Shown piece by piece: positions 12,219-19,803 of a DNA stretch of 32,000 bases; within the stretch, counting starts at the first letter, position 1, and each line of letters opens with the position of its first letter. The position numbers were made by a program, and so were the translations under genes. Below the pieces are notes generated by a model, which worked only from the letters and a program-made list of their open reading frames with translations, was not told the origin of the DNA and did no database searches. Origin of the DNA: Propionibacterium freudenreichii subsp. freudenreichii (GTDB taxonomy: Bacteria > Actinomycetota > Actinomycetes > Propionibacteriales > Propionibacteriaceae); contig NZ_CP010341.1 in NCBI RefSeq assembly GCF_000940845.1, positions 2,250,001 through 2,282,000 on the forward strand, in the 5' to 3' direction.

Positions 12219-13654
12219 GGCTCTTCACGATTGAGGGTGTAGTTGGGGTCTGAATCCTCCGGCCTCGAGGAGACTGCGGGCAATGTAGTTCGTCAGGTTT
12301 CGGAAGCCCAAGGCTGAGCCGCGCAGGTGTTCCAGTCGGCCATTGAGGGCTTCTGTCGGGCCGTTGGAGGTGTGGGGGCGCTCGAAGTAGGCCAGGACGT
12401 CTGTGGCGCGCCGCTTGAGGGTGCGCCCCAGGGTGATGATCTCAGCGAGGGCGGCGGGAACGCCGCGGCTGATGACCTCGATGACGTGGGCCAGCTGGGC
12501 TCGCCCGGCCTTGGGGTCGGGATCGCGGTAGGCGGCCACGATCTTCTGGTAGATGCCCCAGGTGGCTTCCACCCCGACGTGAGCGTCCTGGGCGAAGACG
12601 CCCTCCAGGCGGGTGCGTTGCTTGTCTGTGAGGAGATCCATCCCGGTGTGCAGGGTCTTGCGCACCCCGTACAGGGGATCCCCGGACCGGCCTCGATGTC
12701 CGGTGGTGTCTTGCTGGACGCGCTGGCGGCAGTGGTCCAGGGCATCGCCGGCGAGCTGGACGACGTGGAAGGGATCCATGACCTCCACCGCGTCGGGGAG
12801 TTCTTCCTTCGCTGCGGTCTTGAACCCGGTGAAGCCGTCCATGGCGACCACCTCAATCCGGTCGCGCCACGCAGGGTCTTGCTGGCTGAGCCACTCCTTG
12901 AAGGCCTTCTTGGAGCGGCCCTCCACCATGTCCAACAACCTGGCAGGACCCCTTCCCTCGCGCAGCGGGGTGAGGTCGATGATCACGGTGACGAACTTGT
13001 CGCCCCTGCGCGTGTGCCGCCACACGTGCTCGTCCACCCCGATCGTGGTCACACCCTCGAAGCGATGCTCATCGTTGATGAGGACCCTGCGTCCCTCCTC
13101 CAGGACGGAGGTGTTGGCGCAGTCCCAGGACACGCCCAGACCCTCAGCGACCCGGGCGACGGTGAGGTGTTGGACGACGATGCCCGCCACGGGCCCAACG
13201 CAGTCCGCCCCGGGACAGTTTCGAGCGCGGCTGGGCCGCCCCAGTGGTGTCCTGCCTCCACACACGCCCACACCCCGAACAGCGGTAGCGACGCACTCGC
13301 ACCACCAGTGTCACCGGTCTCCAGCCCGAGGGCTCGTGGGCGAGGCGACGGACCACGGTGTCGCGGGGGATCCCTTCGCACCCACACTCGCGACACCACC
13401 GGTCATCGTCCACCACCCGGCAGGCCACCTCGCAGCGATCCGGGAGGACTCTCTGGCCCACCACCACGAGGCCGAGGTCATCCAGGCGGGCGAACGTGGT
13501 CAGATCGGGGGCAGCAAAGGTAGCGTGGGACACGTCGGGGTCTTTCAGATGGGCAGCGTAGGAACTCCCATCATCGGAAGACCCCGACCCTCACACCCAC
13601 CCCGACACGCCAGCCAGACTCAACCCCCCGCTACACCCCGGATCGCGAAGAGCC
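12219..13654 (-). mobile_element. ISL3-family insertion sequence (1436 bp)
   Basis: Terminal inverted repeats are GGCTCTTCACGATTGAGGGTGTAG (12219->) and GGCTCTTCGCGATCCGGGGTGTAG (reverse complement, ending at 13654). The element encodes an ISL3 transposase. The flanking 8-mers differ (CGATATCC vs CGTTGAGT), so there is no target-site duplication. Confidence 0.9.
12225..13533 (-). pseudogene. ISL3-family transposase split by a 1-nt frameshift (or a sequencing error)
   Basis: The N-terminal ORF 13144..13533 carries the zinc-finger region (RWCRECGCEG...RRYRCSGCGRVWRQD). The C-terminal ORF 12225..13271 carries the DDE region (GVDEHVWRH...VAMDGFTGFK...HTSNGPTEALNGRLEHLRG). The frames join at the GGGCCC run at about 13191-13196. 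Confidence 0.85.
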
Positions 13655-13801: not shown

Positions 13802-14974
13802 GTGTCCATGATTCAGCGGGCCGAGGACGGGCAGCCCGGCCGGCGCCGTAACCTTTCGGTGGTCGGGATCAGCGGTCTGGAAGAGTGGGAGAAGCACCTC
13901 GACCCGCCGAAGCGGCTGATCATCACCGGGGATGCCCGAGACACCGGCGTCGACGACAACTCGATCGATCTTGTCGTCACTTCACCGCCCTACTGGCGGA
14001 AACGTGACTACGGGCATCCCGATCAGATCGGTCAGGAGGCCACTCCGCAGGCATATGTCGAGTCGATGATGCAGTGCCTGGACGAGTGGAGGCGTGTGCT
14101 GCGCCCCACGGGGTCGGTCTTCCTGAACATCGGTGACACTTACCATCACCGATCCCTCATGGGTATCCCCGGCTTGGTTGAGTTCGGGGCTGTACAGCGC
14201 GGATGGCTGATCCGTAACCGCATCATCTGGACCAAGGACGGGGGGATGCCCGAGCCTGCGAGGAACCGGCTGGCCAACCGACACGAGTATGTGATCCACT
14301 TGGCGCTGAAACCGAACTATTACTACGATCTGCTCGGTTATTCGGAGGAGATGGGGAACGGTGCTAATCCGGGGGATGTGTGGCACATCAACCCCGAGCG
14401 CAACATGGGTCGCCATCTCGCGCCATTCCCGCAAGAGCTCGTCCGCAGGGCTGTGATGTTGGGCTGCCCTCCCCAAGTCTGCGCGACTTGCGGGAAGCCT
14501 CGGGTGCGGGTTGTGGAGCGCACCGACCAGCTCGACATGAGCCGGCCGCAGGCCAGACGTGCCGCCGAGCTCGCCAAAGAGCATGGCCTGACGGCTGAGC
14601 ACATTCGCGCTATCCAGGCGACCGGGGTCTCCGATGTGGGCAAGGCAACTAAGTTCCAGAGCGGCACCGGACGGAACTCCGTGAGGGTCCAACGGCTCGC
14701 GGCTGAGGCCAAAGCTGCCCTGGGCGGATACTTCCGGGAGTTCACCTTCGCCAAGAAGGAGACCGTGGGCTGGACAGACTGCGGCCATGGCACTCCCATT
14801 CGTGGGTGCGTCCTAGACCCGTTCGTGGGAACTGGGACAACACTGACCGCTGCCAACAACATGGGCTGTGACGCGATCGGTGTCGACCTGATGCCCGTCG
14901 CACCGGAACCAAGTCTTCATCCGGCGAGGAAGCACGGGCGCCGATCACGCGGAGATGAGCTCCCGGATCTGTGA
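13802..14974 (+). CDS. Beta-class N4-cytosine/N6-adenine DNA methyltransferase (N6_N4_Mtase family)
   Basis: 390 aa. Motif IV (DLVVTSPPYW) precedes motif I (VLDPFVGTGTT), which is the beta-class permutation. A Cys-containing insert (CATCGKP...WTDCGH) is a likely target-recognition region. AAGGAG lies 9 nt upstream of the GTG at 13802. The local GC content is lower. Confidence 0.9.
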   Translation: MSMIQRAEDGQPGRRRNLSVVGISGLEEWEKHLDPPKRLIITGDARDTGVDDNSIDLVVTSPPYWRKRDYGHPDQIGQEATPQAYVESMMQCLDEWRRVLRPTGSVFLNIGDTYHHRSLMGIPGLVEFGAVQRGWLIRNRIIWTKDGGMPEPARNRLANRHEYVIHLALKPNYYYDLLGYSEEMGNGANPGDVWHINPERNMGRHLAPFPQELVRRAVMLGCPPQVCATCGKPRVRVVERTDQLDMSRPQARRAAELAKEHGLTAEHIRAIQATGVSDVGKATKFQSGTGRNSVRVQRLAAEAKAALGGYFREFTFAKKETVGWTDCGHGTPIRGCVLDPFVGTGTTLTAANNMGCDAIGVDLMPVAPEPSLHPARKHGRRSRGDELPDL

Positions 14975-16345
14975 CGCCATCGTCTGCATCTCCTCGTCCA
15001 AGTCCTCCGCGTCGAGATCGACACGGTACTGAAGGGCGAGCGTCGTCCCGACACGCCCCTCCACGAAGAGACCCGGCTGGGATTCTTGTGTTCGGGGATG
15101 AATCGTCATGACCATGGGACTGCGGTAGCGATGGCCGTACGTCATCACCTGCTCGAGTTCTGAGCGCTCCATGTAGTCGTGTACCTTGGTGCATTTGACG
15201 TCTGCGATGAGCGGATATGTGCCGTCCTCGTGCTGGAAGACAATATCGGGCGTCATGTTCTCGGATCGCTTGGTGATAGGGATGGCCGAATCCGGTAGAC
15301 ATTCATGCTGCTTGTCGGTTAGTTCTTGGTAGATCATCTTGCGGCCGGGGTCCTTATTTCCGTCCAAGACTGCAAGGCCCGGCACATTTGCGAAGGCTTC
15401 TTGGAGAGAGAGGCGGACGAACTCTTCGAACAGGGCTTCCGTATTCACGAGGAGTGTCGACATGATGGGATTCCCGGGCCGGTCCTCGACGCGAGCGTCG
15501 CGAGAGTTGAGGGTGATGCCCCGGTCGGTGAGGATCGCGAAAGCCAGGTCGAGGGCTGGCCGGTAGTAGGCGCGGGGTTCTGGCAGCGGCGTGAGGCCGC
15601 GGACCTGTGGATCTTCCAGGAAGGAACGCCGGTCGGTGATCGGAACCTCTTTCAGAATCTGGAGCGCCGCGCCAGTACGGCGAATCCGCGTGCCGCGCTG
15701 CTCTTCGAACTGCGCGCTGTACTGCGCTTGCGCCGCGTACCTCTGGTGAAGAGCCAGCAGGGTTGCCTTCAAGCACCGGTTGGGTGGGTTGTCAATTGAA
15801 CGCTCGAACCAGGAAAACTGGGCATGATGGGTGATCCCGCGACTGGCGAATCGGAGCATGGTGTCTGTGGCGTCAAGGTGTCCGTGTAGGTATGAGCCGC
15901 TCTCCACTGTGCGGTGGTAGCGGCGCAGGAGCCCATTCGAGGTGATGATGTCGAATGCATCCAGTAACGCATCAGCCATCACATCCACGAGCCACTCGCC
16001 AGTGTCGTCTGACGGCTCGTAGCGGCGCAACGCCGGGATGGCGATCGGAGTGCGCCCGCACATGTTCACGATGTGGGTGAGGTTCCTGATGGGGAATCGT
16101 GGCCGGACCTGGAGAGTGATCCGCTCAGTCAGGGGAATGAGCCCAGAGCAACCCCTTGCTCTTAGCCGAAGATGCCCGTGCTTGAAGTCGATGACGACAT
16201 ACTTCTCCTGTATCCCGTCAATGATATTGAGGCGGCCGTCAGGCCCAAGTACCTCATCGGGGTCGATGTTGATCTCGTCGTACTCGTAGCAGGGGATGAT
16301 AATACGGCCGGGCTGATCCAGCCGAGGAACCGGGCTGATGGTCAT
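14945..16345 (-). CDS. McrC-like nuclease subunit (PD-(D/E)xK) of a McrBC-type system
   Basis: 466 aa. The C-terminal nuclease motif is TPDIVFQHEDGTYPLIADVKCTK (D...DxK). Size and layout are McrC-like. The start overlaps the McrB-like stop (ATGA, 16342-16345). Confidence 0.82.
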   Translation of the reverse strand: MTISPVPRLDQPGRIIIPCYEYDEINIDPDEVLGPDGRLNIIDGIQEKYVVIDFKHGHLRLRARGCSGLIPLTERITLQVRPRFPIRNLTHIVNMCGRTPIAIPALRRYEPSDDTGEWLVDVMADALLDAFDIITSNGLLRRYHRTVESGSYLHGHLDATDTMLRFASRGITHHAQFSWFERSIDNPPNRCLKATLLALHQRYAAQAQYSAQFEEQRGTRIRRTGAALQILKEVPITDRRSFLEDPQVRGLTPLPEPRAYYRPALDLAFAILTDRGITLNSRDARVEDRPGNPIMSTLLVNTEALFEEFVRLSLQEAFANVPGLAVLDGNKDPGRKMIYQELTDKQHECLPDSAIPITKRSENMTPDIVFQHEDGTYPLIADVKCTKVHDYMERSELEQVMTYGHRYRSPMVMTIHPRTQESQPGLFVEGRVGTTLALQYRVDLDAEDLDEEMQTMASQIRELISA

Positions 16346-17313
16346 GTCGCGTCGGATTCCGTCTGCGAGCCGCTAGCACCTCCAGCATCTGTCAGGCCGA
16401 CGACCTGGTTCCAGCCATTGACGATCTTGTCACGGGCTTGCTGGTCGTACTTGAATGCCCTGTCCACGTGGTACTGAAGCTGATACTCCCAGACGTTCCT
16501 GAGGGTCTCCGCATCCACTACGTCGGAGAAGTATGCATGCCCGATGGCGGCTGCCGGAGTCTGACGGGCCAACTTGTTGATATCCCAGAACCATGCCAGC
16601 AGTCTTCTTCGCATCGCATCGTCGTTGAAGTGGTTATTCTGGAGGATCGCGTCGAGAAGATCACGCCTTGGAGGCATGTTGATCTTCGCGAATCGCCTCT
16701 CGAAGGCGGCGTCCACCTCATCGACGCCACGGTCAAGCGGGTTCATCGTGGCGATAATGTCGATGTTTGGAGGTATCGAGGTCTTTTCCCCCGACGGGAG
16801 GGTGAACTCTTGGTCTCTCTTGGATCGCTCCACATATGTCAGGGCCTCGCCGAACACCCGGCCAACATCCGCACGGCTGAGTTCATCGATTACTAGCACA
16901 TAGGGATGTTTCCGGTCGGCCCTGGCCTTGTTTACGAGTTCGAGAAACACGCCAGGTCGAAGTTCGAACCCAGTGCCGTTCTTTTTGGGCCGGTAACCCT
17001 CCATGAAGTCCTCGAACTGGTACGAAGCATGGAACTGGATGTCGGCCCGCCTGGTGGTGTCGCCGGAGGTGAGGACATCGGCGGCCCGTCCGGCGAGCCA
17101 CGATTTCCCTGTTCCGGGAGGTCCGGTGAGGATCACTCCGCCGAATCGTGCCACGAGCCGGGTGATCTCCACGATTTGTGGATCGTCGGCCTCCAGAAGT
17201 GGGGCGTCGGGTGCGCTGGAACCGTGGGACTCGGAGGCGTGGTGCCGATAGCCGATGTCGAGGTCGTCGGCGCTCAGCGACCTCACATCCCTCACTAGGT
17301 CCACATCAGTCAT
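16342..17313 (-). CDS. McrB-like AAA+ GTPase subunit lacking an N-terminal DNA-binding domain
   Basis: Walker A is LTGPPGTGKS. The McrB signature is VLVIDELSRADVGRVFGEALTYVE, and IIATMNPLDRGVDEVDAAFERRFAKI is also present. Only about 55 residues precede Walker A. I chose the start at ATG 17313, which overlaps the upstream gene end by 8 nt; 17325 is an alternative. Confidence 0.88.
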   Translation of the reverse strand: MTDVDLVRDVRSLSADDLDIGYRHHASESHGSSAPDAPLLEADDPQIVEITRLVARFGGVILTGPPGTGKSWLAGRAADVLTSGDTTRRADIQFHASYQFEDFMEGYRPKKNGTGFELRPGVFLELVNKARADRKHPYVLVIDELSRADVGRVFGEALTYVERSKRDQEFTLPSGEKTSIPPNIDIIATMNPLDRGVDEVDAAFERRFAKINMPPRRDLLDAILQNNHFNDDAMRRRLLAWFWDINKLARQTPAAAIGHAYFSDVVDAETLRNVWEYQLQYHVDRAFKYDQQARDKIVNGWNQVVGLTDAGGASGSQTESDAT

Positions 17314-18031
17314 CAGGCTCACCATCTCCACTGTCAGCGTCCGATACCTCTTCCGGCTGCGTGAACGGCTCAAACCACGTCGCCGGCGGCGAATCAGGTG
17401 CCGCGTCATCGAACAGGATGCCGAAGTCGGCTCCTTGGTCGAAAGCGAACTCGTGCTTGAATGCCGAGATCAGCTCGCTGAGGCCACCATCACCGGCGAA
17501 CACGAACCCGTCGTTACGCAGATAGAACGCAGCGAGGGCCCATGCGGGCACTCGCTTCCCGTACAGCAGCTTCGCGAGCGCCTGAGTCGCGTGGTCAACG
17601 GGAAGCACGTACTTTCCATCATCGACCATGAATCCTGCAGTGGTGCGAATCGAGCTGGGCGCGTAACTGCCGGCGAGGTTCTTGTTGTACCAGTAGCCGC
17701 TTTCGCTCTTCTTCTTCGTGGAGGAGAATGGTCGGTAGTTCGGCTTGTTCGGCGGCCCGCCGGGCATGTCGAGGAGACGGGCCACCTCGTGCCAGTCCGG
17801 CCGGACTTCTTCCCCTGGATTCATCGAGGCGGCGAGTCGGCGAACCTCGAGATAGGCCGGGAACAGCTCGTGGATGCGCCGCTCCTTCAGCGTGGTGATG
17901 CCGTCCTTGACGACGGGAATGGCCACCACGTGCATCGTCGGGACATTGGGATCGGGCACTGCTTCTGCTGACCTCTGATGCTCATCGCCTGTCGGCAGTT
18001 CTTCCTCCGAGACGCTCACCTTTGGCACCAT
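17306..18031 (-). CDS. Hypothetical 241-aa protein, first gene of the McrBC-like operon; candidate detached DNA-recognition subunit
   Basis: The ORF has island-type codon usage and an acidic C-terminal tail (EEVSDADSGDGEPDD). It is translationally coupled to the McrB-like gene. I recognise no family from the sequence. Confidence 0.65.
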   Translation of the reverse strand: MVPKVSVSEEELPTGDEHQRSAEAVPDPNVPTMHVVAIPVVKDGITTLKERRIHELFPAYLEVRRLAASMNPGEEVRPDWHEVARLLDMPGGPPNKPNYRPFSSTKKKSESGYWYNKNLAGSYAPSSIRTTAGFMVDDGKYVLPVDHATQALAKLLYGKRVPAWALAAFYLRNDGFVFAGDGGLSELISAFKHEFAFDQGADFGILFDDAAPDSPPATWFEPFTQPEEVSDADSGDGEPDD

Positions 18032-18151
18032 ACCGAACGACCTCGGGCGGTATGGCGTTCACGCCACCTTTTTCCATCATCCCTGCCACCCTTGGACCAC
18101 CGGGGCAGGGGTGTGGGCGACAGGGACGGCGTGTGGTGTGGGACCCTCGGG

Positions 18152-18498
18152 ATGAGAGAGGACCTAGATGTAGTTGGTCATGACGTTGTCGACGCCGGTG
18201 TGGAGGCGTGAGGCCGGGGGCTGCTCCATTTGCAGTGTTCGATGACCACGAGGCGTTCCCCACGTTGGCGGCGAAGGCCGCCCGTCTGGCGTTCGGTGTC
18301 GCGGAGGCCCAGGCGTTCGAGGACGGCAACAAGCGGTTGGCTCTGGAGTCGGCCCTGCTGTTCTTGGAGATCAACGGAGCAGTGCTCGACATGAGTCAGG
18401 ACCATGCCGCACACCTCATATGGTCGGTGGCGACAAAAGACGTCAGTCTGGATCAACTGATCATCGAGTTCAGTTCCTGCATCACGATCGGCGCTTGA
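18152..18498 (+). pseudogene. Doc (death-on-curing, Fic-fold) toxin homologue. It is frameshifted, its catalytic His is replaced by Gln, and its stop codon is supplied by the IS3 end.
   Basis: The 18208..18498 product aligns to P1 Doc (AQAFEDGNKRLALESALLFLEINGAVLD vs GHIFNDANKRTALNSALLFLRRNGVQVFD). The N-terminal part MREDLDVVGHDVVDAG is in another frame (18152-18211). The frame change lies at about 18195-18207. Confidence 0.72.
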
Positions 18499-18556
18499 CC
18501 CCTGATCTTGGACACGCTGATTCCAGCACGGCGCTGGGGAAGCGAGAATTCAAGGG

Positions 18557-18886
18557 ATGGCAAGGAAGAACTACACGGACGAGTTCCGGCAGCGGGCGGT
18601 GGACTTGTACGAGTCCACGCCCGGCGGGACGTTGAAGGGCATCGCAGCGGACCTGGGTATCTCCCGCGGCGCGCTGCGGGAGTGGGTCGAGAAGCATGGC
18701 TCGGGCACGACGACCGCCGACAGCATGTCGCCGCCCACGTCGGGTCGGTCAGAGTCCCAGGCAGCGCGGATCGCGCGGCTCGAGGCCGAGCTGGCCCAGT
18801 CGAGGGCGGAGAAGCTGAAGCTCGAGACGGAGCGGGACATCCTCCGTCAGGCGGCGAAGTATTTCGCCGGGGAGACGAACTGGTGA
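18557..18886 (+). CDS. IS3-family transposase OrfA (HTH)
   Basis: MARKNYTDEFRQRAVDLYESTPGGTLKGIAADLGISRGALREWVEKHG followed by a leucine-zipper-like tail. This is typical of IS3 OrfA. Confidence 0.9.
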   Translation: MARKNYTDEFRQRAVDLYESTPGGTLKGIAADLGISRGALREWVEKHGSGTTTADSMSPPTSGRSESQAARIARLEAELAQSRAEKLKLETERDILRQAAKYFAGETNW

Positions 18887-19803
18887 ACCGCTTCCAGTTC
18901 GTCGAGGACCACAAGGACGCCTACGGCGTGAAGCGGTTGTGCGAGGTCATCGAGATCGCGAGGTCGTCGTTCTACGCCTGGCTCGCGGCGGCCCCGGGAC
19001 GGGCGGCGAGAGCGGCCGAGGACGCGGCCCTCGCCGCGCGGATCCGGGTGCTGCAGGACCCCGCCCAGGGCGGCGACCGCGCCTACGGGGCACCGCGGAT
19101 CACCGCCGACCTCAACGACGGCGTCACCGCTGCCGAGCGGGTGAACCACAAGCGGGTCGCCCGGGTGATGCGCGCGCATCAGCTCGCGGGGATCCGGCTA
19201 CGCCGGCGGGTGAAGACCACGATCCCGGACCAGTCCGGACGCCGCTTCCCCGACCTGATCGGGAGGGATTTCTCCATCGGCGAGCCGAACCGCCGGTATG
19301 TCGGCGATATCACCTACCTTCCCATCGCCGACGGGTCGAACCTGTACCTCGCGACCTGCATCGACCTCGGCTCCCGGAAGCTCGCGGGTTGGCAGATCGC
19401 AGACCACATGCGCACCGAACTCGTCGAGGATGCACTCCGCGCCGCGGCCCGCGACCGCGGGACGCTGGCCGGCGCGATCTTCCACAGCGACCACGGCAGC
19501 GTCTACACCTCGAAGGCCTACGCAACCCTCTGCGAGCACCTGGGCGTGACCCAGTCCATGGGTGCGGTGGGCACGAGCGCCGACAACTCCCTTGCGGAGA
19601 GCGTCAACGCGACGCTCAAACGCGAGCTCCTCGAAGGCGCTTCAGCGTTCCCCGACCAGGCCACCGCCTACCGGGCCGTGTTCCGGTGGGCGAACCGCTA
19701 CAACACCCGACGGCGCCACTCCGCGATCGGCCACATCAGCCCGAGCACCTACGAAGCCGCCTACGCGGCGACCGCGTCCGCTACCCTCACGGAAGCGGCA
19801 TAA
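18883..19803 (+). CDS. IS3-family transposase OrfB (DDE/rve integrase core), probably expressed as an OrfAB fusion by -1 frameshifting
   Basis: The frame is -1 relative to orfA and open across the overlap. The DDE region reads YVGDITYLPI...HSDHGSVYTS...ADNSLAESVNATLKRE. A GTG at 18883 is in frame. Confidence 0.9.
   Translation: MNRFQFVEDHKDAYGVKRLCEVIEIARSSFYAWLAAAPGRAARAAEDAALAARIRVLQDPAQGGDRAYGAPRITADLNDGVTAAERVNHKRVARVMRAHQLAGIRLRRRVKTTIPDQSGRRFPDLIGRDFSIGEPNRRYVGDITYLPIADGSNLYLATCIDLGSRKLAGWQIADHMRTELVEDALRAAARDRGTLAGAIFHSDHGSVYTSKAYATLCEHLGVTQSMGAVGTSADNSLAESVNATLKRELLEGASAFPDQATAYRAVFRWANRYNTRRRHSAIGHISPSTYEAAYAATASATLTEAA

Follow-up and report, generated by a model that had tools for sequence, protein, structure and literature searches.

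We analysed a 32,000-nucleotide stretch of the Propionibacterium freudenreichii subsp. freudenreichii genome (contig NZ_CP010341.1, positions 2,250,001 to 2,282,000; hereafter the window, whose first letter is position 1) and focused on a gene for a 241-residue protein that lies directly ahead of a McrB-like gene. A first-pass annotation, made from the sequence alone, had suggested that this protein might be a detached specificity subunit supplying target recognition in trans to the McrB-like protein. Natural fusions, the genomic context of homologues and the neighbouring genes suggest that it is probably the R1-type target-recognition subunit of a restriction-modification (R-M) system of the LlaI/BsuMI class, composed of a McrB-like motor, a McrC-like nuclease and a protective N4-cytosine methyltransferase.

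The restriction operon and the convergent methyltransferase gene

The four genes of the module are listed below with the signals around the first of them; R1, R2 and R3 are named after the subunits of LlaI and BsuMI.

17306..18031, minus strand: R1-type candidate target-recognition subunit, 241 residues, from the list of open reading frames (ORFs), with a core at about residues 33-215
17306..17313, minus strand: ATGACTGA, stop/start overlap of the R1-type and McrB-like genes, read directly from the sequence
18041..18044, minus strand: GAGG, a Shine-Dalgarno-like element 9 nt 5' of the ATG at 18031
16342..17313, minus strand: R2, McrB-type AAA+ protein, 323 residues (AAA_5, E=8.6e-20, residues 59-208)
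14945..16345, minus strand: R3, McrC-like PD-(D/E)xK nuclease, 466 residues (PF10117 McrBC, E=1.1e-14)
13802..14974, plus strand: beta-class N4/N6 DNA methyltransferase, 390 residues (PF01555, E=5e-37)

The coordinates and strand of the 241-residue ORF were borne out by our analysis. Its start codon is the ATG at 18031-18029 on the minus strand, and the NCBI annotation of the same gene is shorter, at 237 residues. The ORF is a genuine gene and no chance ORF because its homologues form 67 clusters in a word-indexed search (E-values down to 1e-158) and 342 clusters at 50% identity in an exhaustive profile search, with strongly conserved motifs. The 342 clusters come from bacteria and haloarchaea; the 67 are mostly from Actinomycetota, and every one of them is named 'hypothetical'. 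At 17306-17313 the plus strand reads tcagtcat and the coding strand therefore ATGACTGA, in which the TGA stop codon of the 241-residue ORF overlaps the ATG of the McrB-like gene, just as the first-pass annotation had read it. The overlap is a predicted translational coupling of the two genes. A consensus scan upstream of the restriction operon found no sigma-70-like promoter, the consensus being ill-suited to high-GC actinobacteria.

The premise that the McrB-like protein carries no DNA-binding domain also held. The matches of R2 to McrB are confined to the AAA+ core, both against the E. coli McrB equivalog model (residues 58-219, E=4.6e-33, under the model cutoff) and against the McrB structures from E. 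coli (E=3e-33) and T. gammatolerans (E=7e-29). Walker A begins about 63 residues into the protein, so that only some 60 residues remain N-terminal of it, too few for a DNA-binding domain. Its motifs are intact in the translation: Walker A GPPGTGKS followed by an aromatic W, Walker B VIDE, the MNPLDR signature and the arginines of ERRF.

The McrC-like gene at 14945-16345 and the convergent methyltransferase gene at 13802-14974 had been overlooked in the first-pass annotation. The start of R3 overlaps the end of R2 by 4 bp, and its translation holds a PD...DVK motif; the match to the NCBIfam McrC model is weak. The methyltransferase matches the REBASE-derived Type II model MTase_II PDLC03316 of PADLOC over its full length (E=1.6e-289), and its motif IV is SPPY, of the N4-cytosine type. 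It converges on R3, and the 3' ends of the two genes overlap by 30 bp (14945-14974). The same convergent layout recurs in most actinobacterial loci, where the ends of the two genes lie no more than a few to a few tens of bp from each other. One possible consequence is that modification versus restriction is controlled by antisense transcription or transcriptional interference.

Transposase-like ORFs flank the module, one similar to IS204/IS1001/ISL3 at 12225-13271 on the minus strand and an IS3-type orfA/orfB at 18557-19803 on the plus strand. Judged from these translations, they suggest that the four genes sit in a mobile island bounded by insertion sequences (IS). At its 5' end, the restriction operon is bordered by a 96-residue Fic/Doc (death-on-curing toxin) ORF at 18208-18498 on the plus strand. 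This toxin ORF matches only the C-terminal half of its family and has an in-frame stop upstream, which marks it as a 5'-truncated remnant.

Natural fusions and genomic context of the homologues

A Rosetta-stone check, which the first-pass annotation had proposed, was informative. Fusions were sought among the top 150 profile matches, in clusters at 50% identity, and the R1-type domain was found at the N-terminus of three kinds of partner.

McrB-type AAA_5, at least 11 independent clusters: P0089, P0091, P0104, P0112, P0133, P0153, P0167, P0187, P0114, P0126 and P0208
AAA_21/SMC_N ABC-ATPase, three clusters: P0175, P0202 and P0176
Deaminase-like domain, one cluster: P0205, from a metagenome (L040, 3681-6197)

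These fusions are no artefacts because they are seen again in independent assemblies. The fusion P0104 was found on nine contigs. In the three shown (L037-L039), it is followed by McrC and by a convergent N6_N4 methyltransferase that is 72% identical to the methyltransferase of the window. The match is collinear and in a single frame, and the linker of the fusion keeps the N-terminal 55 or so residues of the window McrB ('..IGY....SAPDAP..DP.I.E..GPPGT.KS'). The P0104 operon is thus the window system in a form whose first two genes are one. The deaminase-like fusion P0205 directly follows an N6_N4 methyltransferase, mirroring the split arrangement in haloarchaea described below. In three further proteins, P0166 (461 residues), P0082 (330 residues) and P0122 (329 residues), the domain is C-terminal, after an N-terminal extension of 85-270 residues without a Pfam match; for P0166 another kind of fusion is conceivable, and for P0082 and P0122 a mis-called start codon.

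We also scanned the context of the homologues in one genome per species, which gave 34 loci. The R1-type homologue stands directly 5' of an NTPase/nuclease pair in 31 of them, so that its linkage to McrB/McrC or an equivalent pair, on which the proposal of a detached subunit depended, is nearly always kept. A methyltransferase is present in every complete locus, and the module of four genes is conserved in more than one phylum. Methyltransferases like that of the window (49-81% identical) lie beside the homologues in 30 of the 34 genome loci and in L035-L042. The arrangements were as follows.

24 of 34 loci: McrB-like and McrC-like genes with a methyltransferase of the window clade (56-81% identity), convergent after McrC or directly upstream
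L016 (6190-7491) and L010 (3824-5458), both actinobacterial: McrB-like and McrC-like genes with a C5-cytosine methyltransferase (PF00145)
L028: methyltransferase, homologue, AAA_5 and a nuclease of the RE_LlaJI family
L024: methyltransferase, homologue, divergent AAA+ and DUF2357/PDDEXK_7
L026 (6916-10527), L027 (217-2745) and L033 (6683-10328): methyltransferase, homologue, AAA_21/SMC_N ABC-ATPase and DUF4276
In addition to the 34 loci, L036 (5998-7069, Salarchaeum) and L035 (5998-7060, Haloprofundus pMHR1-1): haloarchaeal plasmid loci
L017, L031 and L032, among the 34: contig end, gene fragment or IS insertion

Because the effector pair varies among the loci, the methyltransferase and the R1-type protein are the invariant pair, and the effector, an NTPase/nuclease or another, is interchangeable. 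The protective methylase is apparently swappable as well, as seen from L016 and L010. The ABC-ATPase/DUF4276 genes of L026, L027 and L033, which come from Longimicrobiaceae and Geobacteraceae, form an OLD-like split pair of an ATPase and a Toprim-type protein; the fusions of the reader to the N-terminus of the ABC-ATPase come from other lineages.

On the two haloarchaeal megaplasmids, a protein of about 157 residues comes after the methyltransferase and the homologue, and the operon contains no NTPase or nuclease, as is also the case in L040 with its fused domain. The domain resembles cytidine deaminases (Pfam E=2e-4 and 3e-6), the match of the Salarchaeum protein to that family being weak; the H...CxxC zinc pattern is kept, and HxxE stands in place of HxE. 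Such loci may represent an R-M-like system in which the effector is deaminase-like. Upstream of the genes, L036 and L040 have hypothetical proteins of 685 and 247 residues in common.

The constant company of a methyltransferase could also be explained if the R1-type protein were the Type II restriction endonuclease belonging to it, with McrB and McrC forming an independent or auxiliary Type IV system. Type II endonucleases are typically orphan-like in sequence, adjoin their methyltransferase and escape Pfam; the methyltransferase is directly upstream of the homologue in several loci, and L032 and L035 combine methyltransferase and homologue with no obvious NTPase. However, L032 is interrupted by an IS, and L035 and L036 have the deaminase-like partner. 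Functional coupling with the motor is evident from the stop and start codons shared with the McrB gene and from repeated fusions to the N-terminus of NTPases. Moreover, no PD-(D/E)xK, HNH, GIY-YIG or PLD catalytic pattern is conserved across 206 family members, in which D202 is the only conserved acidic residue. We therefore dropped a nuclease identity for the R1-type protein and consider this explanation very unlikely.

Several homologues look degraded. In L034 (8001-8524) a frameshift separates two matching segments, L031 (6640-8129) holds fragments only, the match in L014 (8001-8414) is truncated, and in L032 (1355-1924) the reader is directly followed by IS transposase genes. Such cases would fit either a frequent decay of R-M modules, which are costly, or errors in the assembly of metagenome-assembled genomes (MAGs). 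A Frankiaceae MAG (L022, 14141-14653) has another McrB-like AAA+ match some 4.5 kb downstream of the module, and two McrB-type systems may share one island there.

Fold, charge and probable target site of the R1-type protein

The R1-type protein found no match in Pfam, PADLOC, NCBIfam, PHROGs or the sequences of the Protein Data Bank (PDB), and no weak match recurred when 43 relatives were compared singly with Pfam (E<=5). No homologue was found in the annotated phage collection. The median length of the family is 215 residues. The window protein has a variable N-terminus of 32 residues predicted with low confidence, a core at about residues 33-215 and an acidic C-terminal tail, and both the acidic tail and the globular stretch quoted in the first-pass annotation are present. 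An AlphaFold2 model built on a 43-sequence alignment (mean predicted local distance difference test 88.6, predicted template modelling score 0.81) shows a single compact core of about 190 residues with ten short helices, three short strands and disordered termini. A Foldseek search with this model returned nothing significant (best E=3.1 in the PDB and 2.7 in BFVD), in line with the earlier view that the globular region could be assigned to no known reader fold. Judged by the model, the reader fold looks new. A CNPase match at E=5 and one HxT motif had raised the idea of a 2H-phosphoesterase, which we dropped as there is only one HxT and the match is insignificant.

Residues H54, Y60, K96, R100, N116, N118, G121, S122, Y123, S127, R129, H147 and R172 are conserved across the 206 members. 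Charge is polarised in the family, being net positive over residues 33-135, strongly negative over residues 176-215 (mean -6.4) and acidic in the C-terminal tails. The positive charge of the window protein is restricted to its N-terminal two-thirds.

The methylome literature offers a candidate target site. According to PacBio data, P. freudenreichii DSM 20271T has only a Type I N6-methyladenine motif and TCGWCGA, which is modified at the fifth base, probably as N4-methylcytosine (m4C), and was ascribed to a Type II system that had not been identified. The same m4C motif was reported for strain TL19, not for TL110. In REBASE data (PMC11033074), M.HspMHR1I of Haloprofundus sp. MHR1 is listed as an m4C methyltransferase for TCGWCGA. 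The Haloprofundus plasmid pMHR1-1 encodes a methyltransferase 57% identical to that of the window (E=4e-120), and an R1-type homologue comes directly after it. From this correlation in two distant hosts, and from motif IV of the window enzyme (SPPY), we infer that the R1-linked methyltransferase clade writes m4C at TCGWCGA. The R1-type protein probably recognises the unmethylated form of this site.

The window itself contains 17 TCGWCGA sites compared with about 7 in shuffled sequences, which reflects codon bias. No site lies within 13957-18898, where about 2.6 would be expected; the difference is not significant. We had also considered that the module might be the CTCGAG-specific PfrJS12II of the JS12 plasmid-like element and dropped this because a megablast search of the module against PLSDB gave no match and the motif evidence favours TCGWCGA.

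The system might work as follows. The methyltransferase would mark the host DNA, most likely as m4C at TCGWCGA. R1 would bind the unmethylated site via the conserved region rich in Arg, Lys, Asn, Ser and His within its net-positive N-terminal two-thirds, and its acidic C-terminal part and tail might dock on the R2 hexamer, at the place where canonical McrB carries its own DNA-binding domain, fused to the N-terminus. R3 would then stimulate NTP hydrolysis and translocation and cut the DNA. Because a methyltransferase adjoins the restriction genes, the system would attack unmethylated sites and not depend on methylation. The first-pass annotation had framed the detached subunit around methyl-readers such as SRA, YTH and EVE. 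The comparative evidence supports the detached specificity subunit; the adjacent methyltransferase reverses the logic of that framing.

Several points weigh against this interpretation. The protein is acidic overall, with a pI of 4.8 and a median pI of 5.3 for the family cores, which is unusual for a DNA binder. No match to SRA-like/DUF3578, YTH, EVE/PUA, ASCH, B3, helix-turn-helix (HTH) or winged HTH domains was found with Pfam for the protein and 43 relatives or with Foldseek. The R1-R2 complex and the reading of DNA are predictions, as are the sensitivity to methylation, the TCGWCGA target and the surface of contact between R1 and R2. The link between the methyltransferase and TCGWCGA is a correlation in two organisms with a putative gene assignment. 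Finally, P. freudenreichii phages do not avoid TCGWCGA (20 sites versus 22.3 expected in G4 and 17 versus 21.3 in Anatole), which is a weak negative because the host in both phage records is TL110 and the motif was reported for TL19.

The acidic character with its acidic tail and the failure to find a known DNA-binding fold would also suit an accessory subunit that does not read DNA, such as an adaptor, an assembly factor, an allosteric regulator or an autoinhibitor resembling an acidic DNA mimic. As a regulator, it could inhibit or activate the effector according to the status of the methyltransferase, and recognition would reside in R3 or in the N-terminal 55 or so residues of R2. The strict pairing with a methyltransferase could equally mean a protein-protein link. 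However, the fused domain occupies exactly the N-terminal position of the canonical DNA readers in McrB, and the domain serves unrelated effectors (McrBC, ABC-ATPase/DUF4276 and deaminase-like), as a targeting module does, whereas a motor-specific regulator would be less transferable. The cluster of conserved R, K, N, S and H residues lies in the net-positive region. McrC was reported in a preprint to show no stable DNA binding on its own (bioRxiv 10.64898/2026.08.31.748284). We consider a role that involves no DNA reading unlikely.

A transcriptional controller timing restriction relative to methylation, analogous to C proteins, might be another function for the first gene of a restriction operon, and the same preprint describes a controller gene in the LlaI operon (bioRxiv 10.64898/2026.08.31.748284). 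However, none of the 43 members has an HTH or other regulator domain, the proteins exceed 200 residues compared with about 80 for C proteins, and fusion to the N-terminus of effectors is not expected of a transcription factor. We regard such a controller as extremely improbable. These explanations are less consistent with the data than an R1-type target-recognition subunit because of the fusions, the swapping of effectors and the lack of catalytic or HTH motifs.

Relation to known systems and significance

LlaI from the Lactococcus lactis plasmid pTR2030 and BsuMI from Bacillus subtilis were described as 'non-canonical' McrBC systems, with R1, R2 and R3 proteins and one or more methyltransferases. 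According to the preprint (bioRxiv 10.64898/2026.08.31.748284), R1 is a separate DNA-binding protein, R2 has no fused DNA-binding domain, and the systems are site-specific and not modification-dependent. The separate R1 proteins bind both DNA and R2, and LlaI.R1 turns a basic face to DNA and an acidic face to R2. BsuMI has two methyltransferases and recognises CTCGARB. In the same source, LlaI.R1 is the sole structurally characterised detached reader, with its target not known, and BsuMI.R1 has a known target and cannot be modelled.

The window module agrees with this class in every architectural respect, as far as its genes tell: an R1 gene in first place, an AAA+ R2 that lacks a reader and retains its catalytic motifs, a McrC-like R3 and a methyltransferase. 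The charge polarity of the R1-type protein is comparable to the basic DNA side and the acidic R2 side of LlaI.R1. In contrast to the 331 residues of LlaI.R1 and BsuMI.R1, the window protein has 241 residues and one core of about 190. LlaI.R1 comprises two domains, with an ERCC4-like seven-stranded sheet in domain 1, whereas the window core is predicted to be mostly helical with three short strands. This separation of the families is indirect, as it follows published descriptions of LlaI.R1 and BsuMI.R1. The window family occurs mainly in Actinomycetota and not in Bacillota, and compared with BsuMI the window has a single beta-class methyltransferase of the N4C type and a likely target of TCGWCGA rather than CTCGARB.

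With the canonical Type IV McrBC of E. coli and T. gammatolerans, the module shares the homologous AAA+ core (E=3e-33), the NxxD signature loop, the McrC partner and the tandem overlapping genes. Canonical McrB has a fused N-terminal reader of modified bases (SRA-like, YTH) and no cognate methyltransferase, and cuts modified DNA. In the window, by contrast, the reader is separate and of a different predicted fold, a methyltransferase adjoins and is co-conserved, and the system is predicted to act on unmodified DNA. LlaJI is likewise a McrBC-derived R-M system that recognises a specific unmodified sequence. Its R1 is a McrB-like protein whose N-terminus is fused to a B3-like domain that binds DNA site-specifically, its R2 is McrC-like, and it has two methyltransferases. 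Fusions of the P0104 type share this two-gene layout, and L028 pairs a homologue with a nuclease of the RE_LlaJI family, whereas the window reader is a separate polypeptide with no B3 or other Pfam match.

OLD-family or ABC-ATPases with Toprim (DUF4276) nucleases, and NTP-dependent Type II enzymes with separate NTPase subunits (CglI, NgoAVII), form a further group for comparison. L026, L027, L033, P0175, P0202 and P0176 resemble these in joining an NTPase and a nuclease that would be directed by a separate or fused reader, whereas the effector pair of the window is McrB/McrC. To our knowledge, a methyltransferase-linked ATPase/DUF4276 pair directed by such a reader has not been described so far.

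The suggestion of the first-pass annotation that the locus represents a split version of the usual fusion together with a new reader can thus be divided. The split itself stands, and the three-protein split architecture has precedents in LlaI and BsuMI. What appears to be new is the reader family with its fold, the tentative target and the re-use with OLD-like and deaminase-like effectors. More speculatively, the R1-type protein might have an undescribed fold that reads TCGWCGA sequence-specifically and is blocked by m4C, forming with its methyltransferase a portable module that guides no fewer than four unrelated kinds of effector: McrB/McrC, AAA+/DUF2357-PD-(D/E)xK, the OLD-like ABC-ATPase/DUF4276 and the haloarchaeal cytidine-deaminase-like protein. 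We put this full set of claims forward as a tentative possibility that we do not yet favour.

How motors of the McrBC type are aimed at DNA is a still-open question, and the R1-type family would add a third reader to it. This reader is tractable: it is small and confidently modelled, has a plausible 7-bp target and a defined blocking modification (m4C), and exists in split and fused natural forms. These features make the docking of R1 on R2 and the discrimination of methylation directly testable. The family might also illustrate how modular R-M specificity can be, with one pair of reader and methyltransferase plugged into McrBC, OLD-like and deaminase-like effectors, and it provides a candidate function for more than 300 clusters of 'hypothetical protein'. 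If the haloarchaeal variant is what it seems to be, it would be an R-M-like system whose effector edits foreign DNA rather than cutting it. For P. freudenreichii, the module would account for the Type II methylation motif of the type strain, which is relevant to the transformation of this industrial species.

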